27,382 bases of DNA, from contig CAYMPD010000015.1 in the NCBI GenBank assembly GCA_964392445.1, forward strand, positions 1-27,382, in the 5' to 3' direction. The translations under genes and the position numbers were made by a program. Origin of the DNA: an uncultured archaeon (GTDB lineage Archaea; Aenigmatarchaeota; Aenigmatarchaeia; CG10238-14). The notes under the pieces were generated by a model that was given only the letters and a program-made list of their open reading frames with translations, was not told the origin of the DNA and searched no databases. This document shows positions 4,056 to 25,391 of this stretch, one piece after another; positions within the stretch are counted from its first letter, which is position 1, and each line of letters begins with the position of its first letter.

Positions 4056-4134
4056 CTTAAACACTATATTATTGAATCCCCAATAAATTAAAGCTTTATT
4101 AATCTTACTGATAATAATTTGTAGGAGTGATTAT

Positions 4135-8842: not shown

Positions 8843-8894
8843 ATAAGATGAAGAAATATTGTTAAAATCTATTGGTACAATATCATCCTCTGGA

Positions 8895-8920
8895 CCATAC
8901 CTATTCTGTATTAAATTATT
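8895..8920 (+). repeat. 26-bp direct repeat, left copy (partner at 10438-10463)
   Basis: CCATACCTATT-CT-GTATTAAATTATT versus CCATACCTATT-TG-GTATTAAATTATT; 24/26 identical. Confidence 0.9.
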
Positions 8921-9651: not shown

Positions 9652-10331
9652 ATTTTCACTCTCCATTTTGAATCTGTTTTCTCGGGTTTAGAGAAAGGAC
9701 TTAATTTTACATAATTTCTATCTAACTCGACCTTATCAGAAATATCTATACCTTTTATTTTCTCAATGAGATATCCCACTCTTTTTGTTATGGAATTATT
9801 ATCTGTTCTCTTAAGGTATTCAATGATTTTTTCTTTTGATATCTTGGAATTCTCGTAAATTTTCTTAATTTCACCAAAATTTCCACATTCTTTTGGCCTT
9901 AAAAAAGCGTCAATTAGTAATTTCTCATCGTCAACGAGGAATATTTCTCCCTGACTAGTTCTTATTTTTTTATATCCGAAGAACTCTTTTAATTTAATGA
10001 ATTTTATTTTATATCCCTCAAAATCTATCACTTTCTTTCTTACAGTTGTTGCAACTTGAATTGTGTTTACTATCTGTTCCGTATAGCCCAGAAAATAGGA
10101 AGCCGACCAAAAGGAAATGTAACAGGGGGTTATTATATTGCTTGCTATGACGAATATCTCATCCTTTGTAGTATAGACGTTTTCAGAAACCCTTTTTATT
10201 GAACCCTTTTCTTTTAATCTATGCAATACCAATCTAGCGTAATCTCTTTCACAATTGTATAGTCTTTCAATATCTTGAGAACTAAATACGGGCATATTTT
10301 CAAGTTTTTTCATTAATTTTATCTTGTCCAT
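9648..10331 (-). CDS. abiEi: AbiEi-family antitoxin / transcriptional regulator
   Basis: N-terminal wHTH-like region (LHRLKEKGSIKRVSENVY), YISFWSASYFLG, QVATT and EKLLID; directly upstream of AbiEii. Confidence 0.85.
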   Translation of the reverse strand: MDKIKLMKKLENMPVFSSQDIERLYNCERDYARLVLHRLKEKGSIKRVSENVYTTKDEIFVIASNIITPCYISFWSASYFLGYTEQIVNTIQVATTVRKKVIDFEGYKIKFIKLKEFFGYKKIRTSQGEIFLVDDEKLLIDAFLRPKECGNFGEIKKIYENSKISKEKIIEYLKRTDNNSITKRVGYLIEKIKGIDISDKVELDRNYVKLSPFSKPEKTDSKWRVKI

Positions 10332-10352
10332 AACTATTTTTCTTATTTCTAG

Positions 10353-10379
10353 TATTTATAATTATCATTTTTGATAATT
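10353..10379 (-). promoter_or_regulatory. abiE promoter: TATA box plus 8-4-8 inverted repeat (probable auto-operator)
   Basis: Minus-strand TATAAATA (10360-10353) ends 22 nt before the ATG; AATTATCA-TTTT-TGATAATT at 10360-10379 abuts it. Confidence 0.65.
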
Positions 10380-10437
10380 TTCCAGTATTAAAGTAAGATG
10401 TTTGGTCATTTAGACCTCAGATCAAATCAACCTTGAC

Positions 10438-10463
10438 CCATACCTATTTGGTATTAAATTATT
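10438..10463 (+). repeat. 26-bp direct repeat, right copy (partner at 8895-8920)
   Basis: 24/26 identical to the left copy; contains the internal dyad ATACC-TATTT-GGTAT. Confidence 0.9.
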
Positions 10464-10490
10464 TTCTATTTTTATGAGATTTCCCCAGAC

Positions 10491-10510
10491 ATATTTATAT
10501 ATTCAAATAT
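10491..10510 (+). promoter_or_regulatory. arsR promoter: TATA box (TTTATATA) inside an imperfect palindrome, probable ArsR operator
   Basis: ATATTT-ATATATTC-AAATAT; TATA centred about 27 nt before the ATG and no RBS, which suggests a leaderless mRNA. Confidence 0.55.
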
Positions 10511-10523
10511 AACAATATGACTT

Positions 10524-10790
10524 ATGCCCATAGATTTATTCAAATCACTATCGGATCCGACAAGGATTAAAATAATAAAGATACTACGGGGTAAAGAGAT
10601 GTGTGCTTGTGAGATACCGGAAAAAGTTAATAGAGCTCAACCAACCGTTTCTCAACATCTAAAGATACTTGAAAAATCCGGAGTTCTTCAATCAAGGAGA
10701 GACGGGAGAGAGATTTTATACAGCATAGCGGATGAGAAGGTTTTCGAACTCATTGAAATAGCAGGAAAAATTCAAAATAGAGGTGACTAG
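10524..10790 (+). CDS. arsR: ArsR/SmtB metalloregulator
   Basis: FKSLSDPTRIKI, MCACEI (alpha3 Cys site), QPTVSQHLKIL and RRDG. Confidence 0.92.
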   Translation: MPIDLFKSLSDPTRIKIIKILRGKEMCACEIPEKVNRAQPTVSQHLKILEKSGVLQSRRDGREILYSIADEKVFELIEIAGKIQNRGD

Positions 10791-11955
10791 GTTGTCAAAG
10801 TTAACAGAAATAGTCAGGAAAAATTGGGTATTATTACTTCTAGGAATATCCTATCTGATCATTTTTCTATGGCAGAATCAAATTGGTAATTTCTTGAGCC
10901 AGGAATCGGTACAAAAAACCATAGGCGGAAGTATATATCAAGGATGGTTGGGCTTAGTTGATTACCTCTCTGCTCATGTTCTAATGTGTCTTATACCCGC
11001 ATTTTTCATTGCTGGTGCGATTAATACACTGATAGACTCAAGTTCTATCATAAAATACATGAGCGGGAAGACCAAAAAATGGCTTGCTTATATTATTGCG
11101 TCTATCGGCGGATTTTTCATCCAAGTATGCTCTTGCACTATACTGCCTTTATTTGCTGGTATATGGAAGAGGGGTGCGGGGTTAGGTATAGCAACGACAT
11201 TCCTTTATGCTGGACCAGCTGTCAATGTGTTGGCGTTTGTATTGACAGGACAAAGGATAGGGTGGGATTTTGCTACAGTCAGACTAATCCTATCGATATT
11301 ATTTTCAATATTGGTTGGTTTGATAATGGAGTTTACTTTCAGGAAGGAAAAAATAGGTAAAGCAGATTTGAATTTAGACTCAAAAAAGGAAGATTCTTTG
11401 AAGGGAAGCAAAAGCAAAATATTCTGGATATTGCTGTTTGGAATCTTGATTGTCGGGACAGCACCTATCCCCAATTCAATAAAATATCCTGCTTTTTTAG
11501 CATTAACATTGGCTGAAGTTATAGTATCTTTTGTTTGGATAAAGAAAGAGGAAAGGAATGCTTGGTGGGACGAGACGATAAAGTTCACCACTGATATTAT
11601 ACCACTCCTTTTAGTTGGGGTTTTCCTTGCAGGTGCGATTACGTATCTGATACCGCAAGAGGATTTCCAGAGATTTGCAGGAAAAAACACAATAATGACA
11701 AACTTTGTCGCTGTGTTGTTTGGGGCAATAGCTTATTTCCCAGCATTGGTTGAAGTCCCTATTGCTGAAAGTTTTTTGAGTCTTGGTATGAACAGAGGTC
11801 CATTAATGGCCTATCTTCTTTCTGATCCTGTGCTGTCTATACAAGGTTTACTAATAATATCAAAAATATTGGGTACAAAAAAGACTTTAGTTTACGCTGT
11901 TAGTATTATTGTTTTAACTACTCTGGCTGGTTATTTTTTTGGTTTGATTGTCTAA
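10783..11955 (+). CDS. ArsP/DUF318-family permease (start may be TTG at 10792)
   Basis: HVLMCLIPAFFIAGAI, VCSCTILPLF, FLYAGPAVN, GPLMAYLLSDP; multi-TM; follows arsR. Confidence 0.85.
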   Translation: MTRLSKLTEIVRKNWVLLLLGISYLIIFLWQNQIGNFLSQESVQKTIGGSIYQGWLGLVDYLSAHVLMCLIPAFFIAGAINTLIDSSSIIKYMSGKTKKWLAYIIASIGGFFIQVCSCTILPLFAGIWKRGAGLGIATTFLYAGPAVNVLAFVLTGQRIGWDFATVRLILSILFSILVGLIMEFTFRKEKIGKADLNLDSKKEDSLKGSKSKIFWILLFGILIVGTAPIPNSIKYPAFLALTLAEVIVSFVWIKKEERNAWWDETIKFTTDIIPLLLVGVFLAGAITYLIPQEDFQRFAGKNTIMTNFVAVLFGAIAYFPALVEVPIAESFLSLGMNRGPLMAYLLSDPVLSIQGLLIISKILGTKKTLVYAVSIIVLTTLAGYFFGLIV

Positions 11956-11968
11956 TGGAGGTGTGAAA

Positions 11969-12199
11969 ATGAAAATAGAAGTGTTAGGTCCAGGGTGTCC
12001 GAAGTGTAAGGGACTGGAGAATAATGTCAGAAAGGCGATTGAAGATTTGAAAATTAAGGCTGAAGTGATAAAGGTTAGTGACATAAGCAGATTCGTGGAA
12101 TACGGGATTATGTCTTCCCCTGCATTGGTTGTGGATGGAAAAGTGAAAGTTTCCGGAAGAGTGCCGGATGTTGATGAAATTAAAAAATGGTTCAAGTGA
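11969..12199 (+). CDS. Small redox-active disulfide protein (thioredoxin_3/MTH895 type)
   Basis: MKIEVLGPGCPKC...YGIMSSPALVVDG; GGAGGTG RBS gives the start at 11969. Confidence 0.92.
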   Translation: MKIEVLGPGCPKCKGLENNVRKAIEDLKIKAEVIKVSDISRFVEYGIMSSPALVVDGKVKVSGRVPDVDEIKKWFK

Positions 12200-12203
12200 T
12201 TAA

Positions 12204-12485
12204 TTGAAAATAAAAATATGGTTTGTCTATGAGGGTATTTCCAAAGAAGGTTGGGACACCACAAAAAATATAATAGAAATCATAAACGAACTTGAAAAAA
12301 CCTACAATAAAGATATCTTCGATTTGAGATCCATAGAATATAGTAGGTTTATTACCGAAACAGAAATTCAGATTAAAAAAACTGATTTGCCTGTTACGTT
12401 GATTAATGAAAAGATTTTTTCAAAAAAGGTTTTGCCTTCCTCAAAAAATTTGAAGAAGGAGATTAAAAAGATATTAGGTGATTGA
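12204..12485 (+). CDS. Cys-free thioredoxin-fold protein, ArsD-like C-terminus
   Basis: LPVTLINEKIFSKKVLPS resembles the ArsD/Trx C-terminal strand pattern; no cysteines; TTG start. Confidence 0.5.
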   Translation: MKIKIWFVYEGISKEGWDTTKNIIEIINELEKTYNKDIFDLRSIEYSRFITETEIQIKKTDLPVTLINEKIFSKKVLPSSKNLKKEIKKILGD

Positions 12486-12839
12486 ATGGACAAAAAGAAA
12501 TTTTCTGAATGGCACGGAATAGAAAGAGAAAAAATTGATTGGCACCCGGAAGTAGATGAAGACAAATGTGTTGGTTGTGGCCTTTGTGTCACAACATGTG
12601 GGCGGGGAGTTTATAAATATGATTTTGGTGAAAAAAAGCCTAAAGTAGTCAATCCTAACAATTGCATGGTTGCATGCCAGACTTGTTCTAACTTATGCCC
12701 AGCAACAGCTATTCATTTTGCTGAAAATAACGCTACAAGAGAAAAGGTGCAAGAAATAATCAAAGATTTTAAAGTCTTGCCTGGAATTAAAGCTGAACTT
12801 GAAAAAAGAAAGGATGAACTGGGTTTTAACCAAGATTAG
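12486..12839 (+). CDS. 2x[4Fe-4S] ferredoxin
   Basis: CVGCGLCVTTC and CMVACQTCSNLCP; N-terminal WHGIEREKIDWHP. Confidence 0.92.
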   Translation: MDKKKFSEWHGIEREKIDWHPEVDEDKCVGCGLCVTTCGRGVYKYDFGEKKPKVVNPNNCMVACQTCSNLCPATAIHFAENNATREKVQEIIKDFKVLPGIKAELEKRKDELGFNQD

Positions 12840-12909
12840 ACTAATAATCGCTGTACATGAAACTTGATAAAAAATATAAGCTTATGCTAGAATAATATTA
12901 CAGGTTCCA

Positions 12910-13533
12910 ATGAAATACAAATTTTTCTTTATTGGTTTATTTCTTTCATTCCTTATATTTACATTTTATTTTAATTTTGAAACAACGGGAAAATTTTTAT
13001 TGAACACAAAAGAGAATGAGACTTTAAGGCTTGGGTATTGCCCCACTATGGAGAAATATGCTAACTCGATAGATAGCCAAAATAAAAATGTGGATTTATT
13101 GAAATTTGGTGATGCCTCCACAGTCATGTCGAAATTGAACTCCAAACAAATAGACGTTGCTTTGATTGGCAGAAAAGCAAGAGAGGATGAATTAGGTTCG
13201 AATCATGAAAGATTATTGAAACCCGGATTCACTCTTGTTTCACCATCAAAATATTTTATAGGATATTCCGAATTAAGGAATTTGGAAATAATTACTTATG
13301 AACACAAAGGGATAACTGAAATTTTCCCAGAATTAAATTTGGAATTCATTCAGGATAAAGCTGATGTATTTCAAGGTAGTAACATAGTGTTAATTTCATG
13401 GGAGGATTACGAAGATTTTATGGGATTGGTCATACCACTGAATGAAGACGGAACGAAAGTTGAGAAATTCAGGGCACCGATAATCTATTCTGGCGACGGG
13501 AATTTGATTGAAACAATCAAATTCAATGGTTAG
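12910..13533 (+). CDS. Membrane-anchored hypothetical protein, possible periplasmic-binding-protein fold
   Basis: N-terminal TM, then LRLGYCPTM...SKLNSKQIDVALIGRKA, a PBP2-like pattern. Confidence 0.55.
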   Translation: MKYKFFFIGLFLSFLIFTFYFNFETTGKFLLNTKENETLRLGYCPTMEKYANSIDSQNKNVDLLKFGDASTVMSKLNSKQIDVALIGRKAREDELGSNHERLLKPGFTLVSPSKYFIGYSELRNLEIITYEHKGITEIFPELNLEFIQDKADVFQGSNIVLISWEDYEDFMGLVIPLNEDGTKVEKFRAPIIYSGDGNLIETIKFNG

Positions 13534-14005
13534 GTGAAAGTATTTTTGAGAACTTTTTTGTAAGCCTTATCATGTTGGTCTTTCCATGAGGTTCCTTGTC
13601 GACTATACCCCTCAATTCTAGATCCTTTAGGGTTCTATGGACTTTTACCGCGCCTAATTCCGAGGAGAGCTTGCTCTGTGTTATTTTACCACCGTTTTCT
13701 ACTATCATTCTTATTAATTTGGCTTCTTCATGCGTTAAAAGGTCTATTAACGCCCTAGTATCTTTTACATATTTTCCTCTGTACTTCTCAATTTTTGGAA
13801 AAAGAAGGTAATAAACAATCGAGCCGACAAAAATTCCCAATGAAGATAATGTCGGTATCAGAATGGGTATGGGTAGTGTACAGCTACATACCTGTCCTTG
13901 AGAAACATGTGTCTGGGCATATAATGTGCTGAAAGAAACACCAAAGACAAACCCAGTTAATAAAATTGTCACGATTAAAACATTTCCAATCGGTTTCATA
14001 ATCAT
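13523..14005 (-). CDS. Two-TM membrane-anchored winged-helix transcription regulator
   Basis: Two hydrophobic segments with VCSCT between them; C-terminal ENGGKITQSKLSSELGAVKVHRTLKDLELRGIV (wHTH). Confidence 0.78.
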   Translation of the reverse strand: MIMKPIGNVLIVTILLTGFVFGVSFSTLYAQTHVSQGQVCSCTLPIPILIPTLSSLGIFVGSIVYYLLFPKIEKYRGKYVKDTRALIDLLTHEEAKLIRMIVENGGKITQSKLSSELGAVKVHRTLKDLELRGIVDKEPHGKTNMIRLTKKFSKILSPNH

Positions 14006-14122
14006 AATCTTTCTTTCGTTTATTTAAATATATTATTATGGAAAAAATTAGCCAATTTTTTTGATTTCATTTTTTGAAACATAACTTTATATATGATTTC
14101 AGACTATTCTAAAAAGATAAAA

Positions 14123-15919
14123 ATGATAGATAAACGATGGATAGTAATTTTATTGTCGATTCTAGGCATTATTCTAGGCATTGTTATAGGTTTGTTATTA
14201 TTTTCAGATATTGTGTTTTCAGAAACGCAAAATAGAGTTGTCGTATATTTCTTCTGGGGAGATGGGTGCCCTCATTGCGCTGCTGAAAAACCTTACTTAG
14301 AAGAATGGCAGAAAAAATATGGCGATGATATAGAAGTAAAGATGTTTGAAACATGGAAGAACCCAGAGAATGTGCCTTTATTTCAGGAGGTTGCACAAGC
14401 TTATGGAATCCAGGCAAGAGGAGTTCCAACAACATTTATTGGTGAAAAAAACTGGGTTGGATTTTCTTCATCAATGGCACCAGAAATGGAACAGTATATT
14501 GAAGAGTGTATTGAAAATGGTTGTGAGGATAAAGCAAAAGATGTTTTTAATGAGTTTCAAAATGAAGATAATTCAGAAGAAATTTCAGAAGAAAATCAAG
14601 GTGATGAATTATGTCTACATGTTTTTTTAAAAGAGGAATGTCCCCAGTGTAAGAATATAGAAAATTATCTTGGGGAGCTGAGTGAAAAATATAGTATTGA
14701 AATTGATAAATATAATGTAAAAGAAAGCGAAGATAAGGAATTATTTCAACAATTTAAAGAAAAATATGGTTTAGAAGCAGATTTATATCCTGCTATTTTT
14801 ATAGGAAACAAATATATTTTAGGTGAAGAGCCAATAAAAACAGCACTTGAGAGCGAGATTGAAACATGTCTGGAAGAGGGTTGTCCTTGCCCCCTATCTA
14901 AAGTAAAACCTTTTACACCAGTAGGAACCAAACCAGAAGATGTGAGTTCTGATGAAGAACAAGTTATAAAAATTCCTTTGATTGGAGAAATAGATTTATC
15001 TTCTATGTCTATGGTTGTTGTTACAGCTTTAATTGCTTTTGTAGATGGATTTAATCCTTGTTCTTTATGGGTGCTTACATTTTTGCTAGGGATAGTAATA
15101 TATACCCGTTCTAGAAAAAAAATATTCATTGTAGGAGCAACCTTTTTATTGGTAACTACTTCAGCATATGGTATTTTCATGACAGGGTTAGTTAGTGTTT
15201 TTTCTTATGTGGGCTATACATTTTGGATTAAACTTGCAGTAAGTCTTATAGCCTTGTTATTTGCAATTGTTAATATAAAGGATTATTTCTGGTACAAAAA
15301 AGGATTATCTTTTACTATATCAGATAAACATAAACCTAGAATGTTCAAAAAAATAAGAGACATCATGGATCCAAATAAATCTACTTTAAGCATGATGATT
15401 GCTACAGCATTAATGGCGCTTGGGATAGTATTAATCGAAATTCCTTGTACAGCAGGATTCCCTGTGATTTGGACAAATATTTTGGCAGAAAATAATGTTG
15501 TTGGTAACACATTTTTTATGTTACTTGCTTTATACCTGATAATTTATCTTCTTGATGAATTAACTGTTTTTATAGCAGCAACAATTACTTTGCAAGCGAG
15601 CAAATTCGAAGAAAAACATGGAAGAATATTGAAGTTGATTGGAGGACTTATAATGTTAGCCTTAGCAATTTCATTGTTGTTTTTCCCTGAAATTATGAAT
15701 TCAATTCTTGGATCAATATATGTGTTTGGTATTGCAATCATAGTTTCTTTTATTATAATATGGATTCATAGAAAAATCCTACCAAAATATGGAATAAAGA
15801 TTGGGACAGAAGAATTAAAAAATAAATCACTAAATAAAAAAGAGGGAAATATGGAAACCCCCTCTCAAAAGAAAAATATTAAGAAAAATGAAATTAAGGA
15901 GGAGGAGGAAAATGACTGA
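14123..15919 (+). CDS. Trx-Trx-CcdA/DsbD-like fusion (membrane thiol:disulfide transfer protein)
   Basis: N-terminal TM; CPHC and CPQC thioredoxin domains; CPCP linker; membrane domain with DGFNPCSLW and EIPCTAG. TTTATATA at 14086-14093 favours the ATG at 14123 over 14093. Confidence 0.85.
   Translation: MIDKRWIVILLSILGIILGIVIGLLLFSDIVFSETQNRVVVYFFWGDGCPHCAAEKPYLEEWQKKYGDDIEVKMFETWKNPENVPLFQEVAQAYGIQARGVPTTFIGEKNWVGFSSSMAPEMEQYIEECIENGCEDKAKDVFNEFQNEDNSEEISEENQGDELCLHVFLKEECPQCKNIENYLGELSEKYSIEIDKYNVKESEDKELFQQFKEKYGLEADLYPAIFIGNKYILGEEPIKTALESEIETCLEEGCPCPLSKVKPFTPVGTKPEDVSSDEEQVIKIPLIGEIDLSSMSMVVVTALIAFVDGFNPCSLWVLTFLLGIVIYTRSRKKIFIVGATFLLVTTSAYGIFMTGLVSVFSYVGYTFWIKLAVSLIALLFAIVNIKDYFWYKKGLSFTISDKHKPRMFKKIRDIMDPNKSTLSMMIATALMALGIVLIEIPCTAGFPVIWTNILAENNVVGNTFFMLLALYLIIYLLDELTVFIAATITLQASKFEEKHGRILKLIGGLIMLALAISLLFFPEIMNSILGSIYVFGIAIIVSFIIIWIHRKILPKYGIKIGTEELKNKSLNKKEGNMETPSQKKNIKKNEIKEEEEND
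14246..14518 (+). repeat. 273-bp perfect direct repeat, copy 1
   Basis: Base-for-base identical to 16471-16743; encodes YFFWGDGCPHC...ECIEN (91 codons). Confidence 0.97.
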
Positions 15920-16325
15920 AAACAATTTCCCAAAGGATTTGAAATATAACAAAGATTATTCATGGATTAAAATTGAAAAAGAGACTACAACTGTAGGAGT
16001 CATAGAATCTGCTACAAAAAAAGTTAAAGAGTTTGTTTTCATTAAACTCCCTGAAAAAGGCAAAAAAATTAGTCAGGGAGAAAAATATGTTTCTTTAGAA
16101 GCAGTCAAGTGGTCTGGTCATTTATCAAGTCCTGTTTCAGGGGAGATTATTGATGTGAATGATTCATTGTTTGCTGAACCATCTAAAATAAATAAAGACC
16201 CTTATGAAAGTTGGATAATGAAAGTTAGAGTGGATAACACGAAAGATTTAGAAGAATTAATGGATCCAGAAGAGGCAACTAAATTTTATGAAAAAAAATT
16301 GAAAGGAGGTAATAAAAGTGAATAA
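15912..16325 (+). CDS. GcvH-like lipoyl carrier protein (LbpA-like)
   Basis: LKYNKDYSW, FVFIKLP, SLEAVKWSGHLSSPVSGEIIDVN, INKDPYESWI; lipoyl-Lys codon at 16107-16109; GGAGGAGG RBS. Confidence 0.9.
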   Translation: MTENNFPKDLKYNKDYSWIKIEKETTTVGVIESATKKVKEFVFIKLPEKGKKISQGEKYVSLEAVKWSGHLSSPVSGEIIDVNDSLFAEPSKINKDPYESWIMKVRVDNTKDLEELMDPEEATKFYEKKLKGGNKSE

Positions 16326-16773
16326 AAAATATATCTATATAGGAATTGGAATTTTGGTTTTAGCTGTTGCGAGTATTTTAGTCTTTTCTAATGGAAATAA
16401 TCAGAACATAACTGGAGATGTTGTCTTAGGAAATTCTGATTTAATTGGTGATCCAGACAAAGTAACAATTTATTTCTTCTGGGGAGATGGGTGCCCTCAT
16501 TGCGCTGCTGAAAAACCTTACTTAGAAGAATGGCAGAAAAAATATGGCGATGATATAGAAGTAAAGATGTTTGAAACATGGAAGAACCCAGAGAATGTGC
16601 CTTTATTTCAGGAGGTTGCACAAGCTTATGGAATCCAGGCAAGAGGAGTTCCAACAACATTTATTGGTGAAAAAAACTGGGTTGGATTTTCTTCATCAAT
16701 GGCACCAGAAATGGAACAGTATATTGAAGAGTGTATTGAAAATAAATGCGAAAGTCCATTAAATGGAGTGTAA
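16318..16773 (+). CDS. Membrane-anchored thioredoxin/glutaredoxin (CPHC)
   Basis: GTG start with a GGAGGT RBS; N-terminal TM; Trx domain identical to that of the fusion protein. Confidence 0.88.
   Translation: MNKKYIYIGIGILVLAVASILVFSNGNNQNITGDVVLGNSDLIGDPDKVTIYFFWGDGCPHCAAEKPYLEEWQKKYGDDIEVKMFETWKNPENVPLFQEVAQAYGIQARGVPTTFIGEKNWVGFSSSMAPEMEQYIEECIENKCESPLNGV
16471..16743 (+). repeat. 273-bp perfect direct repeat, copy 2
   Basis: Identical to 14246-14518; offset 2225 bp. Confidence 0.97.
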
Positions 16774-16819
16774 GATTATGAAAGCTTTATTCTGTTTGAA
16801 GAATTTGAGGTGATATAAA

Positions 16820-17056
16820 ATGACTGAGAAACCAAATGCTACAATTGACGTGAGAGGGGAAATATGTCCTTATCCGGACATAAAGGCAAGAAAAAAGCTG
16901 AAGGAGATGGAGTCGGGTGAGATTCTTGAAATTCTCACAGACTATCCATTATCGCTTGAGAGGATTCCCAGGAGCGCAGAAAAGGAAGGGCATAAAGTTC
17001 TTATTGTTGAGAAAATAGACGGAGCAGATCACAGGATTTTAATAAAGGTGAAATAA
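16820..17056 (+). CDS. tusA: TusA/YeeD-family sulfur carrier
   Basis: IDVRGEICPYPDI (CPxP motif) and GEILEILTD. Confidence 0.93.
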   Translation: MTEKPNATIDVRGEICPYPDIKARKKLKEMESGEILEILTDYPLSLERIPRSAEKEGHKVLIVEKIDGADHRILIKVK

Positions 17057-17057
17057 G

Positions 17058-18071
17058 ATGATTGCAGCAACAGGAATTATCAGTGGGTTATTTGTAGGGT
17101 TGATTTTCGGGTTTGTGTTACAGAGAGGAAGATTCTGCATGAATTCAGCATTCCGAGACCCATTGGTATTCAAAGATTTTACCCTCTTAAAGGCAGTAGC
17201 ATTAGCATTGATTATCCAGATGATTGGATTTCATTTCCTTTCATATTTAGGAATTATAACCCTTGCTCCAAAAACATTCTATCTGATTGGTGCTATTACT
17301 GGAGGATTTATATTTGGGATTGGCATGGTGATTGCAGGAGGTTGCGCTAGTGGTACAGCCTATCGAGTGGGGGAAGGTATGGTAAGCTCTATGCTGGCTT
17401 TGTTTTCATTTGCATCAACTGCTTTCTTTTTTAAGGATGGATTCTTGTCAAATATTACAGAATCTATTTATCAATTTGATTTAGGGAAAATAACTTTAGC
17501 ATCCTTGACAGGGGTTCCAAACTGGATTTTTGTCATTATATTTTCAGTAATCGGATTTTACTTTCTATTCAGGAAAAGGGAGCATGCTACTGAAAAAAAT
17601 AAGTCTTTTTTTGAAAAGATGTTTAAGACAGGATGGACGTGGAAGGTTACAGGGACAATCATAGGACTCATAGGGATAGCTGGTTTTGTTGCTTCTGCTT
17701 TTACGGGCAGAAATTATCCTTTAGGCATCACTATGGGGTTTGAAACAATCGTAAAATCAATTGCTACAGGAAGAAACTTTCTGACATGGGAATCTTTTGA
17801 AGTCATTGGCTTAATATTTGGGGCTTTTATTGCAGCATTGATAGCCAATGAGTTTAAAATAAGAATACCTCCAATAAAGATGGGCATGCAAGCATTTTTT
17901 GGAGGAATATTACTTGGTGTGGGTGCTGTGATTGCTGACGGATGCAACATAGGACATATCTTGAGCGGAGTTCCGCAGTTGGCTATAAGTAGCATTGTTG
18001 CAGGAACATTCATCGTGATTGGGGCCTGGAGCACTGCATATTTTATGTTTATGAGAGGTGAAAAACAATGA
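17058..18071 (+). CDS. yeeE: YeeE/YedE-family sulfur-compound (thiosulfate) transporter
   Basis: QRGRFCMNSAFRD, GMVIAGGCASG and DGCNIGH: the three conserved Cys loops; multi-TM. Confidence 0.92.
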   Translation: MIAATGIISGLFVGLIFGFVLQRGRFCMNSAFRDPLVFKDFTLLKAVALALIIQMIGFHFLSYLGIITLAPKTFYLIGAITGGFIFGIGMVIAGGCASGTAYRVGEGMVSSMLALFSFASTAFFFKDGFLSNITESIYQFDLGKITLASLTGVPNWIFVIIFSVIGFYFLFRKREHATEKNKSFFEKMFKTGWTWKVTGTIIGLIGIAGFVASAFTGRNYPLGITMGFETIVKSIATGRNFLTWESFEVIGLIFGAFIAALIANEFKIRIPPIKMGMQAFFGGILLGVGAVIADGCNIGHILSGVPQLAISSIVAGTFIVIGAWSTAYFMFMRGEKQ

Positions 18072-18412
18072 AACTAGGATTGATGCTTATAAGACCACCG
18101 TACACTTATCAGGATCTTGATACAGCTTATCATTTAACAAAGGCAGCATTGGAAAAGAATCATGAAGTCAAAATTTTTCTTTACGTTGACAGCGTAATTG
18201 TAGCAAACAAAGAGATAAACTCTGGTAGCGAAAGAAATCTTGCAAAAAAGTTCGGTGAATTGACAAAATTGGGTGTTGAAGTAAAGATCTGCGGTGTCTG
18301 CGTCCAATACAGAGGTATTAAAAGAAGCCAGCTTATAGAAAAGGGAGAGCTTGAAGGCCTCCCGGGGCTCGCAGATTTAATCAAGGAATGCGACAAATTC
18401 GTAAGTATATGA
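18068..18412 (+). CDS. dsrE: DsrE/TusD-like sulfurtransferase
   Basis: RPPY, KIFLYVDSV, KICGVCVQYRG and LIKECDKFVS. Confidence 0.85.
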   Translation: MKLGLMLIRPPYTYQDLDTAYHLTKAALEKNHEVKIFLYVDSVIVANKEINSGSERNLAKKFGELTKLGVEVKICGVCVQYRGIKRSQLIEKGELEGLPGLADLIKECDKFVSI

Positions 18413-18421
18413 GGTGTTAAA

Positions 18422-18772
18422 ATGAAAAAAGTGCTATTAATAGTTAATAGGGCTCCTTTTGGAAGCGTTTTTGCGGCAGAGGCGCTGAGGGCAGGCATTG
18501 CTTTTGCAGGCATGGACTTAGAGACAAAGCTCCTTTTTGCAGACGATGGGGTGTTTTGCCTTTTAAAAGACCAGCATCCAGAAATTGCTCAAATGACCAG
18601 CTTGGGAGAAGGATTTAGCAATGCTGGGGAGTTCGGGCTGAAAATATTTGCCGATACAGAGTCCATATCTGAAAGGAATCTTAAAAATGATAGCTTGATT
18701 GAGGTGAAACAAGTAACCAAGCAACATATAAGGGACTTCATTGATGAGGCTGAAGCAATCATTAATTTTTGA
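18422..18772 (+). CDS. dsrF: DsrF/TusC-like protein
   Basis: RAPFGS...EALR, FADDGVFCLLKDQ and DTESISERNL. Confidence 0.85.
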   Translation: MKKVLLIVNRAPFGSVFAAEALRAGIAFAGMDLETKLLFADDGVFCLLKDQHPEIAQMTSLGEGFSNAGEFGLKIFADTESISERNLKNDSLIEVKQVTKQHIRDFIDEAEAIINF

Positions 18773-18782
18773 GGTGAAAAAA

Positions 18783-19058
18783 ATGGTATTATTCATAATA
18801 AAAGAATCTTTGCTGAGAGGAGAACCCAGCATGATTAAGTATTTGAATCCTAAAGACAAGGTGTTGCTGATACAGGACGGGGTGCTGATATTGAATAGGA
18901 GCGATTCGGGCATTCAATTTCTCAAAGAAAAAGAGGCTGAAGTATTGGCATTGAAAGAAGACCTGGAGCTTCGAGGAATCCAGAATAATGCAGGGGTCAA
19001 ACTTATTGATTATCAGGGTTTTGTTGAATTGATTGAAAATGAGAAGGTGTTTTCTTGA
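18783..19058 (+). CDS. dsrH: DsrH/TusB-like protein
   Basis: DKVLLIQDGV, ALKEDLELRG and IDYQGFVELI; start moved to ATG 18783 behind a GAGGTG RBS. Confidence 0.88.
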   Translation: MVLFIIKESLLRGEPSMIKYLNPKDKVLLIQDGVLILNRSDSGIQFLKEKEAEVLALKEDLELRGIQNNAGVKLIDYQGFVELIENEKVFS

Positions 19059-19900
19059 AGATGTCTGCGCTAGAAAACATTCAGATTCCTGAATATGATA
19101 GAACAGAATATGTGAAAACTAAAAAGATGATAGAACAAAATAATTTGACAACTGTGTGTATTGAGGCAAACTGCCCCAACAGATACGAATGTTTTTCAAA
19201 AAAGACTGCTACATTTATGATATTGGGGGATACATGTACAAGAAACTGTCTTTACTGCAACGTCAAAAGCGGTATGCCAAGAAAGGTTGATACTAATGAG
19301 CCAGTAAGAATCGCTAAAGTAATTAAGAAAATGAATTTAAAATATGCAGTAATTACTTGTGTTACAAGGGATGATCTTCCTGACGGTGGAGCAGGACAGT
19401 TCGTCAATATAATAAAAGAAATCAGGAAGTTAAACCCTAATTGCAGAATTGAAGTGCTAATTTCCGATCTTAAAGGAGACTGGAATTCACTGGAAGAAAT
19501 AATCGATGAAAAGCCAGATGTATTAAACCACAACATAGAAACTGTAAGGGGATTGTTCCCTGAATTAAGGCCAGAGGGAGATTACAATACTTCCATGAAA
19601 TTGTTAAAAAAAGCAAAAGAATTTAGTTCGGGTCTAATAACAAAGTCAGGATTTATGCTGGGATTTGGAGAGACTGGAGCGCAAATAACAGAAACCCTGA
19701 AAGACCTGAAGAAAGTTCAATGCGATATCGTTACAGTCGGCCAGTATCTGCAGCCAAGCGAAAAAGAATTTCAAATGAAGAAGCAGTATACAACCGAGGA
19801 ATTCAAAGAGATTGAAGAAAAAGCCAAAGAATTGGGAATAAAACGGGTTGTTTCAGGCCCGTTGGTAAGAAGCTCTTATAAGGCAGGGGATGTTATATGA
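19055..19900 (+). CDS. lipA: Lipoyl synthase (start TTG 19055 or ATG 19061)
   Basis: CIEANCPNRYEC (CX4CX5C), CTRNCLYC (CX3CX2C), RDDLPDGGA, NHNIETV, GQYLQP and RSSY. Confidence 0.97.
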   Translation: MKMSALENIQIPEYDRTEYVKTKKMIEQNNLTTVCIEANCPNRYECFSKKTATFMILGDTCTRNCLYCNVKSGMPRKVDTNEPVRIAKVIKKMNLKYAVITCVTRDDLPDGGAGQFVNIIKEIRKLNPNCRIEVLISDLKGDWNSLEEIIDEKPDVLNHNIETVRGLFPELRPEGDYNTSMKLLKKAKEFSSGLITKSGFMLGFGETGAQITETLKDLKKVQCDIVTVGQYLQPSEKEFQMKKQYTTEEFKEIEEKAKELGIKRVVSGPLVRSSYKAGDVI

Positions 19901-20343
19901 AGATGTTAAATATTTACAAATTCTTTTCTCTGGCCTTGATGCTTGCTGGCGTGGTATATATTTCTGGGTGCATTCAGAATACAGGTACATATGGAAACGG
20001 AACTCTTGGCATTGAAATCGCCATGCTCACAACGGATAAAAACACCTACGGTTCCCATGAGGACATGAAGGTTTCTGTCCTTATCAGGAGTTCAAAAAGC
20101 TTTGAAAATGTGACCGTAAGTCTGTCCGGAATAAAGCCGTATAACCACGCTTATGTAAAAGAATCAAAAATCGTGAATCTCTTCCAAGGCGAGAATGAGA
20201 TAGTGTTTTATGTAAAAACGCCTTACTGTACTTCTGGCTGCGGGGGCGTCTATCCCGGTCCATATGACATTAACGCGGAAATACTGATAAATGGAGAGCA
20301 GGTCGCCAATTCCAGTACAAAAGTAAACCTAGTAGGTGATTAA
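19897..20343 (+). CDS. Predicted lipoprotein with a beta-sandwich-like domain and a CxxxC motif
   Basis: Hydrophobic signal ending in SGC lipobox; PYCTSGCGG; sequons NGT, NVT and NSS; overlaps the lipA stop (ATGA). Confidence 0.7.
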   Translation: MKMLNIYKFFSLALMLAGVVYISGCIQNTGTYGNGTLGIEIAMLTTDKNTYGSHEDMKVSVLIRSSKSFENVTVSLSGIKPYNHAYVKESKIVNLFQGENEIVFYVKTPYCTSGCGGVYPGPYDINAEILINGEQVANSSTKVNLVGD

Positions 20344-20357
20344 TAGGGGTATAGAAA

Positions 20358-21113
20358 ATGAATGAATGGAGATTACTAAAATTAAGAGAGGACAGCGGGG
20401 CGATGCAGATGGCAATAGATGAGGCTATACTTATTGCACGATCAAAAAACTCAGTTCCAAATACTTTGAGATTTTTTACGTGGAATCCTCCGTGCTTGAC
20501 AATTGGTTATTTCCAGTCTCTTCAGAAGGAAGTTGATGTCAAAAATGCAGAAAGGCAGGGAGTGGATATAGTGAGAAGATATACTGGTGGAGGGGCAGTT
20601 TTTCATGATAAGGAACTGACATATTCATTAGCAATCTCTGAGGATAATGTTCCGCAGGATATTGTTGCATCATATCAGAAAATATGTTCTGCCATAATAA
20701 ATGGTTTGAAGAATTTGAATATCAATTCTAAGTTTAAACAGATAAATGATATAGTCGTCAATGGAAAAAAAATTTCTGGGAGTGCTCAGACAAGAAAAGA
20801 AGGTGTTGTCTTGCAGCACGGAACCATTCTTATTGATTTGGATATAAAGAAGATGTTTTCTCTTCTAAAAGTTCCAGATGAAAAGATAAAAGATAAGATG
20901 ATAAAGAGTGTTGAAGAAAGGGTAACTTCATTGAAGAAAGAACTTGGTAGAAACGTAACGCTTGAAGAGCTCAAGAAATCATTAAGAAGTGGATTTGAAC
21001 AAATTTTTGATATAGAATTTGTAGGTGGAGAATTGACTTCTAAAGAAATTAAGACTGCGGAAAGATTATATGAAGAAAAATACTCAACAAAAGGGTGGAA
21101 TCATTGGCGATGA
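20358..21113 (+). CDS. lplA: Lipoate-protein ligase catalytic subunit
   Basis: QMAIDEAIL, LRFFTW, RRYTGGGAVFHD, NDIVVNGKKISGSAQ and LQHGT. Confidence 0.93.
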   Translation: MNEWRLLKLREDSGAMQMAIDEAILIARSKNSVPNTLRFFTWNPPCLTIGYFQSLQKEVDVKNAERQGVDIVRRYTGGGAVFHDKELTYSLAISEDNVPQDIVASYQKICSAIINGLKNLNINSKFKQINDIVVNGKKISGSAQTRKEGVVLQHGTILIDLDIKKMFSLLKVPDEKIKDKMIKSVEERVTSLKKELGRNVTLEELKKSLRSGFEQIFDIEFVGGELTSKEIKTAERLYEEKYSTKGWNHWR

Positions 21114-21394
21114 AAAAGCATATTGATTATAAGGTACCAAATGGAAAACTAATACGAGTTGATTTAGAATTAGAGAATAACATAATAGAAAAAATAAAAA
21201 TTACTGGAGATTTTTTTATTCATCCTGAAGAATCAATAATACTCATAGAAAATTCCTTGAAAGGAACCAATGTTAAAGATTGTGGTAAAACTATAAGAAA
21301 AGTCATTGGACTCAACAAAATAAAACTCATTGGACTATCAGAAAGAGATTTAGAAATAGTATTAACGAATGTTTCTGAGGACGATATGAAGTGA
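21110..21394 (+). CDS. lplB: Lipoate-protein ligase accessory (C-terminal domain) subunit
   Basis: YKVPNGKLIRV and IKITGDFFIHPEE; ATG 21110 overlaps the lplA stop. Confidence 0.88.
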   Translation: MKKHIDYKVPNGKLIRVDLELENNIIEKIKITGDFFIHPEESIILIENSLKGTNVKDCGKTIRKVIGLNKIKLIGLSERDLEIVLTNVSEDDMK

Positions 21395-24081
21395 AATGGC
21401 ACAGTCTACCTAAAGAAAAAGTGATTAAACAACTTAATACAGATTCTGATAATGGTTTAAGTGATAGTGAAGTAAGGGAAAGAATCAGCAAGTATGGTAA
21501 GAATAGAATTGATAAGGAAAAACACTCGTCCAAGTTACAAATATTTTTTAGGCAGTTTAAATCTCCTTTGATTTACATTCTTATTATAGTTGCTGTTATC
21601 GTATTTTTTCTGGAAGATTATCCGAGGAGCTTACTTGAAAGTGGATTTATACTAGCTTCGGTCTTGATAAATTCTATGTTTGGGTTTTGGGAGGAGAACA
21701 AAGCGTCTAGGACCTTTGAAAAACTCAAAGAAATACTTAAAACAGAGACAATAGTCATTAGAAATGGAAATAAGAGGGTTGTTCTTCAGGAAGAAATCGT
21801 ACCAGGAGATATAATTGTTTTAAGTTCCGGAGACAAAGTACCTGCTGATGGGAGATTAATAGAAGTACAGGATCTTAAAATTTCTGAGGCAGTTTTGACT
21901 GGTGAATGGCTCCCTACTGGGAAGATAGTCGATCCTTTACACGAGAATACAGCACTAGCTGAACGGGATAACATGGTTTATGCAGGATGTTTAGTAAAAG
22001 GGGGAGAAGGAAAATTTGTTGTTACGGCTACAGGAACGAACATGGAAACAGGTAAAATTGCGGATATGGTTGATAAAACAAAAGAAGAAAAAACACCTCT
22101 TCAAAAGAAAATATCTAGTTTCAGTCAGATAACTGGTATTGCTATTCTGGTAATCACCATCTTAATTTTTATCGGTGGTTTAATACGTGGAAATGATCTT
22201 GTTGAGATGTTTGAGACAGCTTCTGCTATCGCTGTGGGGGGTATACCTGAAGCTTTACCTATAATCATGACTTTAACTTTGGCAATAGGAATGGAAAGAT
22301 TGTCAAAAAAACAGGGATTAATTAGGCGACTTTCTTCTGTGGAAACTTTGGGCTCTACTACAGTGATATGTTGTGACAAGACAAAAACACTTACCCTGGG
22401 TGAGATGGAACCTCACAAAGTTGTCACCTTGGAAAATAATTTTACGGTGGATAAAGAAGTCAATAGTCAAGTTTATCTTTCAGTTGTTAGAACAGCCACC
22501 CTCTGCAATGAAGCTTTTGTTGAAAATCCAGAAAAAACTCCTGAAAAGTGGAAAATAAGAGGTACACCCACTGATAAAGCTCTATTTTTAAGTGGACTTA
22601 GGTCAGGAATTATAAAATCGGAATTGGAAGAAGAATTCTCTTTGGTTAAACGAGTTTCATTTGATTCTTCATTGAGATATCAGGCTGGTTTGTATGAGAA
22701 AAACGGTAAAACATTTTTGTATGTAGCTGGGGCACCCAAAGAAATCATAAAAAATTCGGGTTTTGTAAAATTAGAGAAGGAGACCAAAAAAATCAACTCT
22801 AAAGTCTCTAAGAAATTAGATTCAAAAGTTGATAATTTGACTGAAAAAGGAGAAAGAGTGATAGCATTCGGGTACAGACAAATTAAAAAATCTGAAATGG
22901 GTAAAGACCCAAAAGAATTGGTAGATGAACTTACTTTTACGGGTTTTCTTAGTATAAAAGATCCTTTAAGAAAGGATGTTAAAAAAGCTCTAAAGACGGC
23001 TAAACAGGCTGGATTGAGATTGATAATCATAACTGGTGATCACAAAAAGACGGCTAAATCTGTTGCCGAAGAATTGGGGATGCTAATAAAAGAAGAAAAT
23101 ATCCTTGAGGGAAGTCAATTAGATGAAATGTCTGATCAGGAGTTTGTGGGTATCGTGGAGAAAATAAAAATTTATGCTAGGGCAGAACCTAGACACAAAA
23201 TGAGAATAGTAGATGCTTGGCAGGATAAAGGTGAAGTTGTGGCTATGACTGGAGATGGTGTGAATGATGCCCCTGCATTGAAAAAGGCTGATATAGGAAT
23301 TGCCGTTGGTTCTGGGACTGAAGTGGCAAAGCAAACATCTGATCTGGTTTTACTGAACGACAGTTTTGACATTATTGTTAAGGCGGTAGAAGAAGGTAGA
23401 ACAATATTAAACAATCTGAGAAAAGCGATTAGTTATGTAATGGCAGATTCATTTACTACTGTGGTTTTGGTTGGGAGCAGCTTAATAGCTGGACTACCTT
23501 TACCCATATTATGGACACAAATACTTTGGAATAATGTTGTTGAGGATACATTACCAAATATTGCGTTTGCTTTCGAATCGAAAGAAAAAGATACTATGAA
23601 AAGAAAACCAACATCTAGGAAAAATTCGATACTTACAAAAGAGATGAAAGTGCTTATATTTGCTACTGGTCTGATAGATCAGATATTAGCTTTAGCACTT
23701 TTCTGGATTCTTTGGGGGAAATTAGGTTTAAATCTCAAATATGCAAGAACAATGACTTTTGGTGCTATTTGTATAGATACAGCTTTTGTAATTTATTCTT
23801 ATAAAAACCTGAAAAGGAATATTTGGGAAATTGATCTTTTTGATAATAGATTATTACTTTTATCTTCGTTATTAGTTCTGTTATTTTTTGCAGGGGCTGT
23901 CTATTTGTCCATATTTCAAAATTTACTTCAAACAGTGCCTTTGGGTTTGAGGGATTGGCTTATCCTGATAGTGATGGCTATAGTATCTACGCTATTGATT
24001 GAAGTTACTAAGTGGTTTTTTATTACCAAAAATAGGAAAGAGTATAGAAGAATCGAAGATAAAGAAGATTTATTTGCCTAG
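21391..24081 (+). CDS. Type II P-type cation ATPase with atypical motifs
   Basis: Full-length A/N/P/TM architecture; TGEW, PEAL, DKTKT, TGDH and GDGVNDAPALKKAD; GTG start overlaps the lplB stop. Confidence 0.9.
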   Translation: MKWHSLPKEKVIKQLNTDSDNGLSDSEVRERISKYGKNRIDKEKHSSKLQIFFRQFKSPLIYILIIVAVIVFFLEDYPRSLLESGFILASVLINSMFGFWEENKASRTFEKLKEILKTETIVIRNGNKRVVLQEEIVPGDIIVLSSGDKVPADGRLIEVQDLKISEAVLTGEWLPTGKIVDPLHENTALAERDNMVYAGCLVKGGEGKFVVTATGTNMETGKIADMVDKTKEEKTPLQKKISSFSQITGIAILVITILIFIGGLIRGNDLVEMFETASAIAVGGIPEALPIIMTLTLAIGMERLSKKQGLIRRLSSVETLGSTTVICCDKTKTLTLGEMEPHKVVTLENNFTVDKEVNSQVYLSVVRTATLCNEAFVENPEKTPEKWKIRGTPTDKALFLSGLRSGIIKSELEEEFSLVKRVSFDSSLRYQAGLYEKNGKTFLYVAGAPKEIIKNSGFVKLEKETKKINSKVSKKLDSKVDNLTEKGERVIAFGYRQIKKSEMGKDPKELVDELTFTGFLSIKDPLRKDVKKALKTAKQAGLRLIIITGDHKKTAKSVAEELGMLIKEENILEGSQLDEMSDQEFVGIVEKIKIYARAEPRHKMRIVDAWQDKGEVVAMTGDGVNDAPALKKADIGIAVGSGTEVAKQTSDLVLLNDSFDIIVKAVEEGRTILNNLRKAISYVMADSFTTVVLVGSSLIAGLPLPILWTQILWNNVVEDTLPNIAFAFESKEKDTMKRKPTSRKNSILTKEMKVLIFATGLIDQILALALFWILWGKLGLNLKYARTMTFGAICIDTAFVIYSYKNLKRNIWEIDLFDNRLLLLSSLLVLLFFAGAVYLSIFQNLLQTVPLGLRDWLILIVMAIVSTLLIEVTKWFFITKNRKEYRRIEDKEDLFA

Positions 24082-24209
24082 AAATAGATATATAATGGTT
24101 AAAAGTGAGTCAAGAAAATAAATGAAAATGTCAGGGGATTTGGGAATCCATTCGGAAAGGTATAAAAGAGAAAAATTCCAAAGTAATTGTGTTGTTGTTA
24201 GGTGATGAA

Positions 24210-24680
24210 ATGAGTGAAATGGAGGTAAAGATTAACAAAAAGTTATTTATAGGCATTGTAATAGGTATTTTAATTCTGGTATTTTTCATCCCCAAGTATT
24301 TGACAAAATCAGGATCGATGGTGGAAGTTGCAAGTAACAGCAATGTTGAGAAAGTTGAGATATACCATTTTCATGGTACTCACCAATGCTATTCTTGCAT
24401 AACTGTGGGGGCATATGCCGAAGAGACCATCAATACTTATTTCACTGACGAGCTGAAATCTGGAAGAATAGTTTTTGACCATATCAATGGTGAACTACCT
24501 GAAAACGGTGATCTTGTAAAAAAGTACGGCGCAACGGGTTCTTCTCTCTGGATAGGTGTTTACGATGAGAATGGATTTCATGCAGAAGAAAACACAAATG
24601 TTTGGTACAAAATAAATGACAAAGACGACTATATGCAGTACCTGAAAGGGGTAATCGAAAAGAAGTTGGAGGGTAATTAG
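24210..24680 (+). CDS. arsF: ArsF-family thioredoxin-fold protein (membrane-anchored, CxxC)
   Basis: TM, then VEIYHFHGTHQCYSC; GGTGA RBS supports ATG 24210. Confidence 0.72.
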   Translation: MSEMEVKINKKLFIGIVIGILILVFFIPKYLTKSGSMVEVASNSNVEKVEIYHFHGTHQCYSCITVGAYAEETINTYFTDELKSGRIVFDHINGELPENGDLVKKYGATGSSLWIGVYDENGFHAEENTNVWYKINDKDDYMQYLKGVIEKKLEGN

Positions 24681-25391
24681 ATGGGGATAATGGGTTTTAT
24701 GGAAGCTATGGGAACACACAATTTTCCATTGATTGCGGCTTTTTTTATAGGATTGATGACAGCTATTAGCCCGTGCCCAATGGCTACAAACATAACAGCG
24801 ATTGCTTATGTATCCAAAAAGCTGGACAAGGAAAAGAAAACTTTGCTTGTTGGATTGAGTTATACACTAGGAAGGATGTTGACATATATTCTGATTGCAT
24901 CAACCATAGTTTATATCGGCGTAAATGTACAGACTATATCTTTATTCCTACAAAAATATGGGGAAAAAGCACTGGGTCCGCTCTTGATTTTCTTTGGTGT
25001 CGTAATGCTGGATATAATTAAAATTAATATTGGCAAAAAGAGTGAAAGGATTGAAATGCTAAAGGAGAAGTTATCAGAAAAAGGTTATGTTGGAAGTTTT
25101 CTTTTGGGAGTTATCTTTGCACTGGCTTTCTGTCCGTTCAGTGGTGTGTTATTCTTTGGGATGTTAATTCCACTTGCACTAAAATTTTCTGACGGTTTAT
25201 TAATTCCTTCTGTATTTGCGTTTGCTACAGGGCTGCCCGTGATAATCTTTTCATTTATATTGGTCTATAGCATATCAAAGTTAGGTACTATAATGGATAA
25301 GGTTCAGAGAGTTGAAAGATGGACAAGAATTTCTGTTTCCATAATTTTTATTTTGGTTGGGATTTATTATATAGTGAAGCTGTTTTTGTGA
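24681..25391 (+). CDS. arsG: ArsG/CcdA-like membrane protein
   Basis: GLMTAISPCPMATN, YTLGR and LAFCPFSGVLFFG; follows arsF with zero gap. Confidence 0.75.
   Translation: MGIMGFMEAMGTHNFPLIAAFFIGLMTAISPCPMATNITAIAYVSKKLDKEKKTLLVGLSYTLGRMLTYILIASTIVYIGVNVQTISLFLQKYGEKALGPLLIFFGVVMLDIIKINIGKKSERIEMLKEKLSEKGYVGSFLLGVIFALAFCPFSGVLFFGMLIPLALKFSDGLLIPSVFAFATGLPVIIFSFILVYSISKLGTIMDKVQRVERWTRISVSIIFILVGIYYIVKLFL

Follow-up and report, generated by a model that had tools for sequence, protein, structure and literature searches.

Why should genes for a sulfur relay lead directly into the gene for lipoyl synthase in an archaeon with a very small genome? The question arises on contig CAYMPD010000015.1 of an uncultured member of the Aenigmatarchaeota (assembly GCA_964392445.1). 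The whole contig, 27,382 nucleotides (nt) long and hereafter called the window, was analysed as part of a 1.2-Mb genome with a completeness of 94.9%. It encodes the ribosomal proteins S8e and L37e, which are archaeal markers. At 16820-19900 on the plus strand, tusA, tsuA (yeeE), dsrE, dsrF, dsrH and lipA lie contiguously, head to tail. An earlier note on this DNA had described the same run from the sequence and proposed it as a possible dedicated sulfur supply line for lipoyl synthase. The linkage proved to be conserved in all ten homologous loci that reach the junction between dsrH and lipA, but the proposed mechanism found no specific support. We consider instead that the genes from tusA to lipA are the central part of a single operon-like cassette whose core is an orphan lipoyl protein. 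In this reading, to which we assign a probability of about 0.5 as an explanation of the whole, a Thermotoga-type sulfur import relay exchanges sulfur or electrons with the lipoyl protein, and lipA, lplA and lplB only make its cofactor.

The six-gene run is embedded in a longer same-strand string that extends from a gene for a 608-aa membrane protein, beginning at 14093, to lplB, ending at 21394. The membrane protein (14093-15919; here TrxTM) has Pfam Thioredoxin_2 and Glutaredoxin matches. It is followed by a GcvH-like lipoyl carrier protein (15888-16325; PF01597, 121 bits; here GcvHL) and by an anchored thioredoxin of 151 aa (16318-16773; Thioredoxin_2). Downstream of lipA are a secreted or anchored protein of 148 aa (19897-20343) and the large and small subunits of a lipoate/octanoate-protein ligase, LplA (20358-21113; PF21948, 202 bits) and LplB (21095-21394; NF053749, 75 bits, above the cut-off of 65). 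The 148-aa protein has no Pfam or NCBIfam match; it sits between lipA and lplA in the archaeal cassettes, with homologues at the same position in loci L022, L024, L025, L026 and L056.

GcvHL is the only GCV_H or Biotin_lipoyl match in the genome. The lipoyl lysine (K67) does not vary in alignment A1, and the protein has the motif characteristic of its clade, EAVKWSGH. None of the usual users of such a protein was found beside it. GcvT is missing from all nine phylum genomes with this type of GcvH; three control genomes that have canonical GcvH do contain it (GcvP was not searched). No E2 was found in the genome. E3 was rejected as a partner in this genome because no Pyr_redox_dim match was found there; only a Pyr_redox_2 protein the size of thioredoxin reductase is present. 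The sHdr system was likewise rejected as the missing partner, the sole CCG protein being LutA-like and lying in a LUD/LutB (LutABC-like) context on contig C22. Because GcvHL is the sole lipoyl acceptor found, lipA, lplA and lplB have one visible client, the adjoining GcvHL. Judged by predicted function and position, these three genes are clearly placed to make and attach its lipoyl group.

The gene of the 608-aa protein is directly 5' of the GcvH-like gene in nearly all related loci. The protein has an N-terminal anchor, a thioredoxin domain (CPHC), a glutaredoxin-like domain (CPQC) and a membrane domain of several helices, in which two cysteines (NPC and LPCTAGFP) are invariant. The membrane domain matches no Pfam family, including DsbD, and a Foldseek search against the PDB gave no match. 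The AlphaFold model is confident, with a pLDDT of 82.5. CcdA (5VKV) could be superposed on the membrane domain with a Z score of 8.2 and a root-mean-square deviation of 4.4 over 200 of 224 residues, a Z that is also reached by unrelated helical bundles. The protein resembles CcdA and DsbD in its outward thioredoxin-type domains and its two invariant membrane-domain cysteines; it differs from them in the missing family matches and in its presumed cytoplasmic partner, which would be the lipoyl protein and not thioredoxin. A perfect direct repeat of 273 nt (14246-14518 and 16471-16743, 100% identity) was also noticed here. It corresponds to the thioredoxin domains of the 608-aa protein and the 151-aa thioredoxin, which are thus identical at the DNA level, and suggests that gene conversion or duplication took place recently, or that the assembly produced the repeat.

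The relay begins with TusA (16820-17056; PF01206, 84 bits), a TusA/YeeD-type sulfur carrier with a cysteine in a CPYP motif and the only TusA in the genome. It is followed by a TsuA/YeeE-type transporter for thiosulfate or sulfane sulfur (17058-18071; PF04143, 288 bits; NF052577, 307 bits against a cut-off of 400). Three subunits follow in the order E-F-H, with matches to PF02635, PF02635 and PF04077 as in the DsrEFH/TusBCD layout: DsrE (18068-18412; 82 bits), DsrF (18422-18772; 62 bits) and DsrH (18783-19058; 70 bits). Against NCBIfam models, DsrE and DsrF scored below the cut-offs (TusD, 54 versus 89; TusC, TIGR03010, 67 versus 94) and DsrH scored above (TusB domain, TIGR03011, 69 versus 49). 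The dsrH reading frame opens at 18741, and its homologues begin at the ATG at 18783. The CGVC of DsrE that the earlier note had pointed out lies in the motif ICGVCVQYRG, and both cysteines, C75 and C78, are invariant in 13 homologues (alignment A3). The closest solved chain to DsrE is A. vinosum DsrE (2HY5), and that to DsrH is Thermotoga maritima TM0979 (1RHX, 83 bits). DsrH contains no cysteine, and its homologue alignment (A5) has no conserved cysteine column. The conserved cysteine that is typical of the DsrH of sulfur oxidisers (Cys20 of A. vinosum DsrH) is thus missing. No PF04358 match, which would indicate the acceptor DsrC/TusE, was found in the genome, and no sulfite reductase gene shows in the window.

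The relay module was also found in contexts other than the lipA cassette. In a sister clade with 46-50% DsrE identity, the genes after TusA-TsuA-DsrEFH encode an ArsR-TusA fusion and then a dihydrolipoyl dehydrogenase (TIGR01350, 531 bits versus 409), and no LipA was found in these loci. The flavoprotein beside the sister relay in locus L104 was considered as an orthologue of the cassette flavoprotein described below and was rejected, since it has 28% identity over only part of its length and is a true dihydrolipoyl dehydrogenase. T. maritima, one of our control genomes, has a DsrH match and no LipA match. Gene content and context thus identify tusA-tsuA-dsrEFH as a separable, Thermotoga-type module with a predicted function in the import and relay of thiosulfate or sulfane sulfur.

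How firmly is this module tied to the cassette? Of the 371 genomes of the phylum, only six have DsrH; each of the six contains the same cassette, and together they represent five families. The order TrxTM, GcvHL, thioredoxin, TusA, TsuA, DsrE, DsrF, DsrH, LipA, (148-aa protein), LplA, LplB recurs in the five other phylum genomes and in four assemblies found through DsrE. The DsrE clade itself comprises only 23 proteins in a collection of 5.8 billion. Every member with at least 65% identity whose contig continues past dsrH is followed by DsrH, by LipA 1-3 nt later, and then by LplA and LplB. In the window, the dsrH stop codon (TGA, 19056-19058) either overlaps lipA by 4 nt, if lipA starts at the TTG at 19055, or precedes it by 2 nt, if it starts at the ATG at 19061; the overlap or abutment given in the earlier note is thus borne out by the gene calls. 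That note would have given up its proposal if lipA were unlinked from dsrEFH in homologous loci; the two are linked in ten of ten, with a 1-3 nt gap or overlap in nine. Three of the contigs carrying relay and LipA look bacterial by gene content, with PilM/PilO and type II secretion system genes, SurA and an OmpR-type two-component system. The hosts of relay-bearing cassettes are therefore archaea and, apparently, bacteria.

Cassettes that lack the relay were collected from metagenomes by the GcvHL motif with an alignment-based scan, which gave 37 loci; a single-protein GcvHL search of the genome contigs gave only five. TrxTM and GcvHL occurred as a pair in almost all of these loci, and about 15 had LipA next to the pair; none had the relay. 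Clustering of the unassigned open reading frames of 35 cassette loci revealed what takes the place of the relay: 13 relay-less cassettes have a flavoprotein of about 440 aa between GcvHL (with a thioredoxin, DUF169 or CMD-family gene) and LipA or LplA. It has a conserved cysteine in the motif YSPCALPY and scores best against CoA-disulfide reductase, NADH oxidase, CoA-persulfide reductase and Npsr. Three of the flavoprotein cassettes have no LipA (L013, L089 and L093). One locus, L022, has both, with DsrH, the flavoprotein and LipA in this order; in the other ten relay-bearing loci, the relay occupies the same slot. No homologue of the flavoprotein was found in the genome of the window, and four of the six relay genomes lack one. 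The position between the carrier genes and the cofactor genes is therefore evidently a slot, filled here by the relay and in most relatives by a flavoprotein predicted to be of the NAD(P)H-dependent CoA-disulfide or persulfide reductase type. As the same slot holds the flavoprotein also where LipA is missing, adjacency to lipA is a property of the slot and not of the relay.

LipA itself (19055-19900) is a canonical lipoyl synthase (TIGR00510, 339 bits versus a cut-off of 310.25); a LipS2 model gave only 32 bits. It has the radical-SAM motif CX3CX2C (CTRNCLYC), the auxiliary-cluster ligands CX4CX5C (CIEANCPNRYEC) and the C-terminal VRSSY. The six cysteines are invariant in 54 LipAs, and R272, S273 and S274 are invariant in alignment A6. 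With both cluster motifs and the RSSY serine in place, the auxiliary cluster should need reloading. In a tree, this LipA belongs to a cassette-specific clade with 99% support, within which LipAs with and without a neighbouring relay interleave, and no alignment column separates the two sets. Extra LipA cysteines were considered as a mark of the relay and rejected because they are common to the whole cassette clade. Co-folding of DsrE, DsrF and DsrH with LipA (alignments A3-A6) scored 0.00 and gave no answer, which counts neither for nor against binding. LipA is present in 38 genomes of the phylum, about 30 of which carry a different LipA clade, beside E2-type lipoyl proteins. A thioredoxin-like gene stands directly upstream of lipA in most genomes of that other clade (L028, L031, L032, L034-L038, L042-L047, L051 and L058).

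The earlier note reported no cysteine desulfurase or iron-sulfur (Fe-S) carrier in the window, and the window reading frames that we scanned indeed contain none. It called for a check of the genome for iscS, sufS and nfuA. In the genome, an IscS-like gene adjoins IscU on contig C4, a second class-V aminotransferase is on C47, and a CysK/M gene is present; no PF01106 match for Nfu was found in the genome, and SufBD was not found either. Nfu is missing from 38 of 40 genomes with LipA or the cassette, relay or no relay. The idea that the relay replaces NfuA, which predicts a complementary distribution, was therefore rejected; the relay fills no Nfu-shaped gap. All six relay genomes lack SufBD, as do the relay-less genomes G316 and G262. 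For E. coli, IscU can reload LipA in vitro, and lipoylation persists in an nfuA mutant (PMC13692748). With IscS-IscU and CysK present, and IscU able to reload E. coli LipA, a cysteine-independent route is not required. Across the phylum, genomes with the E2-linked LipA mostly have SufBD and a SufU-like NifU_N match inside a suf operon, and most GcvHL-cassette genomes have no SufBD and a high-scoring, stand-alone IscU beside an IscS-like gene. Some IscU and SufB matches are split in long frames (488-896 aa), as expected of intein-containing genes (G316:C34:2548-3999; G341:C2:148354-149823; SufB in G192, G026, G108, G237 and G313).

Several known systems resemble parts of the cassette. In one of them, sHdr-LbpA, a single cluster encodes TusA and DsrE proteins together with a lipoyl protein and dedicated enzymes for the assembly of its lipoate, and Aquifex TusA co-purifies with LbpA (PMC11094781, PMC6067878, PMC10332631). 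Both systems have a GcvH-like protein outside glycine cleavage that is clustered with TusA, DsrE-family carriers and its own ligase and synthase genes. The cassette differs in that the genome has no sHdr genes, its only CCG protein being the LutA-like one noted above; that the synthase is LipA and not LipS1/S2; that a DsrEFH heterotrimer set replaces DsrE3; that a membrane thioredoxin protein is its neighbour; and that the hosts are anaerobes with tiny genomes and not sulfur oxidisers. It is set apart from glycine cleavage by the lack of GcvT in nine of nine GcvHL cassette genomes. YeeE-TusA-DsrE(FH) sets have been described before, as the YTD cluster or DsrEFH type II (PMC13293266). Thiosulfate induces the yeeE/dsrE/tusA unit of T. 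maritima 42-fold, and in the cytoplasm of this species a CoADR-like NSR acts as a reductase of thiosulfate and polysulfide (PMC9431562). The relay described here has the same five-gene content (a YeeE-like transporter, TusA and three DsrE-family subunits), a DsrH closest to TM0979, and an association with CoADR-type reductases, in L022 and through the relay-less cassettes. It departs from these systems in two respects: the known acceptor DsrC is absent, and genes for a lipoyl protein and a lipoyl synthase enclose the module. A TM0979-type DsrH, a dihydrolipoyl dehydrogenase neighbour in the sister clade and CoADR-type reductases together indicate that this relay type associates with dithiol/persulfide redox enzymes in independent contexts. 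Together with the sHdr-LbpA precedent (PMC11094781), this points to the lipoyl arm as the partner of the relay, and not to lipoyl synthesis.

Could the relay nevertheless serve LipA? In the proposal of the earlier note, sulfane sulfur from imported thiosulfate would pass through TusA and DsrEFH to LipA, where it would rebuild the auxiliary [4Fe-4S] cluster or be inserted directly, independently of cysteine. The conserved dsrH-lipA junction speaks for this, as do the lack of any relay in LipA-less cassettes and the position of the relay next to LipA-LplAB in locus L102. So do the absence from the genome of DsrC/TusE, which leaves DsrEFH without a known acceptor, and of Nfu and SufBD (all six relay genomes lack SUF), and the intact auxiliary-cluster motif of LipA, which must be reloaded (PMC13692748). 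Yet about 14 sister cassettes have LipA without the relay, among them that of G316, in which DsrH occurs nowhere in the genome, and the interleaved LipAs show no residue that marks the relay. The flavoprotein takes the same slot also without LipA, and in L022 it separates dsrH from lipA. Nfu is missing regardless of the relay, and IscS-IscU and CysK are present. In E. coli, LipA is reloaded by NfuA or, in vitro, by IscU (PMC13692748); compared with that system, the present one has both LipA cluster motifs, the RSSY serine and IscU, and differs in having neither Nfu nor SufBD. The sister clade and T. maritima have this type of relay and no LipA. We consider the dedicated line quite unlikely. 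A variant, in which TusA-DsrEFH sulfur reaches LipA directly or through IscU as a persulfide-based alternative to NfuA where IscS-IscU is minimal, seems to us improbable to the same degree.

A second possibility is general assimilation, in which TsuA, TusA and DsrEFH import thiosulfate and break it down to sulfide, CysK turns it into cysteine, and IscS-IscU supplies all sulfur cofactors; the place in the operon would then reflect only co-regulation in a thiol/sulfur island. Thiosulfate is taken up for assimilation by the pair YeeE/YeeD (TsuA/TsuB), of which YeeD breaks it down to sulfide (PMC11073785). In the window, too, a TusA-like gene that encodes the conserved cysteine adjoins a YeeE-like gene; this pair differs in that both scores fall below the curated TsuB/TsuA cut-offs, in that its substrate assignment is putative, and in that DsrEFH follows. 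CysK/M was found in the genome of the window (G000) and in G044 and G341 and in none of three relay-less cassette genomes, and the relay is separable from the cassette. Against this, three of the six relay genomes have no CysK/M match, E. coli needs only TsuA and TusA, which leaves the full DsrEFH unexplained, the module keeps a fixed cassette slot across distant hosts, and the sister clade is tied to dihydrolipoyl dehydrogenase. We regard general assimilation as an unlikely explanation.

We therefore return to an exchange between the relay and the lipoyl protein, in which the partner of the relay would be the dithiol/disulfide arm. TsuA would import thiosulfate or polysulfide, and the cysteine of TusA and Cys78 of DsrE would carry the sulfur as a thiosulfonate or persulfide. 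The dihydrolipoyl group could then reduce the carried sulfur to sulfide, or the reverse could take place in sulfidic water. This would couple sulfur compounds to the lipoyl protein, which would in turn connect them with the membrane thioredoxin protein. Released sulfide could feed CysK and IscS-IscU and reach LipA only indirectly, and the dsrH-lipA adjacency would be positional and not a sign of direct sulfur delivery. Several observations weigh against this reading. The relay was present in 10 of 24 LipA cassettes versus none of eight LipA-less cassettes (one-sided Fisher p = 0.03, uncorrected for relatedness), the relay-bearing cassettes representing only about four independent relay groups. 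The dsrH-lipA junction measures 1-3 nt in most loci. In L102 (a contig of GCA_964422035.1; locus coordinates 8019-19773), which has two LplA/LplB pairs in one genome, the relay lies beside LipA-LplAB and is separate from the block with GcvH; the second LplAB pair follows a TrxTM-like gene, GcvH and DUF169 2.5 kb away, and an opposite-strand ABC transporter operon separates the two blocks. A transfer of sulfur from any DsrEFH to a lipoyl group would be without known precedent. Which way electrons or sulfur would flow is conjecture, and the CcdA-like role of the 608-aa protein, although a reasonable inference, is only suggested by its model.

The gap before tusA contains the 11-mer AAAGCTTTATT at 16781-16791. 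The earlier note had matched it to an element before rpl37e and taken it for a possible internal promoter. The match is exact, and the window has exactly two copies; the other, at 4090-4100, ends 35 nt 5' of the rpl37e ATG (4135), and that at 16781-16791 ends 29 nt 5' of the tusA ATG. With one mismatch allowed, seven matches were found versus 3.1 expected, a number reached in 3 of 100 shuffles. The spacing fits the position of an archaeal TATA/BRE element, and a promoter role is plausible at most, given just two copies. A scan for sigma-70 promoters and terminators gave fewer sites than shuffled sequences, such models being uninformative for an archaeon. The gap upstream of tusA is longer in several relatives (340-760 nt).

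The surroundings of the cassette recur as well. Genes that travel with it in other genomes flank it here on both sides. At 10783-13533 are an ArsP_1 permease, a 2x[4Fe-4S] ferredoxin (12486-12839) and a conserved 207-aa protein without a Pfam match (12910-13533); at 24189-25391 are an ArsF-family protein (24189-24680; NF040494, 111 bits) and a DsbD_2 membrane protein (24681-25391). In relatives, they stand together in a block that also includes an ArsR-type regulator and a Thioredoxin_3 gene. The window also encodes two P-type cation ATPases of about 900 aa (5054-7780 and 21391-24081). The second directly follows lplB, overlapping its stop codon, and L022 likewise has a homologue next to its cassette. 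The minus strand (8911-10331) encodes an AbiEii-type nucleotidyltransferase toxin, with an overlapping upstream reading frame as a possible antitoxin.

Our literature search found no paper describing this cassette. The recovery of the sacrificial cluster of LipA is known for E. coli and humans only, and a persulfide relay would be a new answer, if true; that the relay restores the LipA cluster here is unlikely. What the cassette does present is a lipoyl protein without a glycine cleavage partner, a 2-oxoacid dehydrogenase or an E3, which archaea and, to judge from gene content, bacteria with very small genomes retain together with dedicated genes for its cofactor. This protein is paired either with a flavoprotein of the CoA-disulfide/persulfide reductase type or with a relay for thiosulfate or sulfane sulfur, which points to protein-bound lipoate as a carrier in thiol or sulfane-sulfur redox chemistry outside the known sHdr system.

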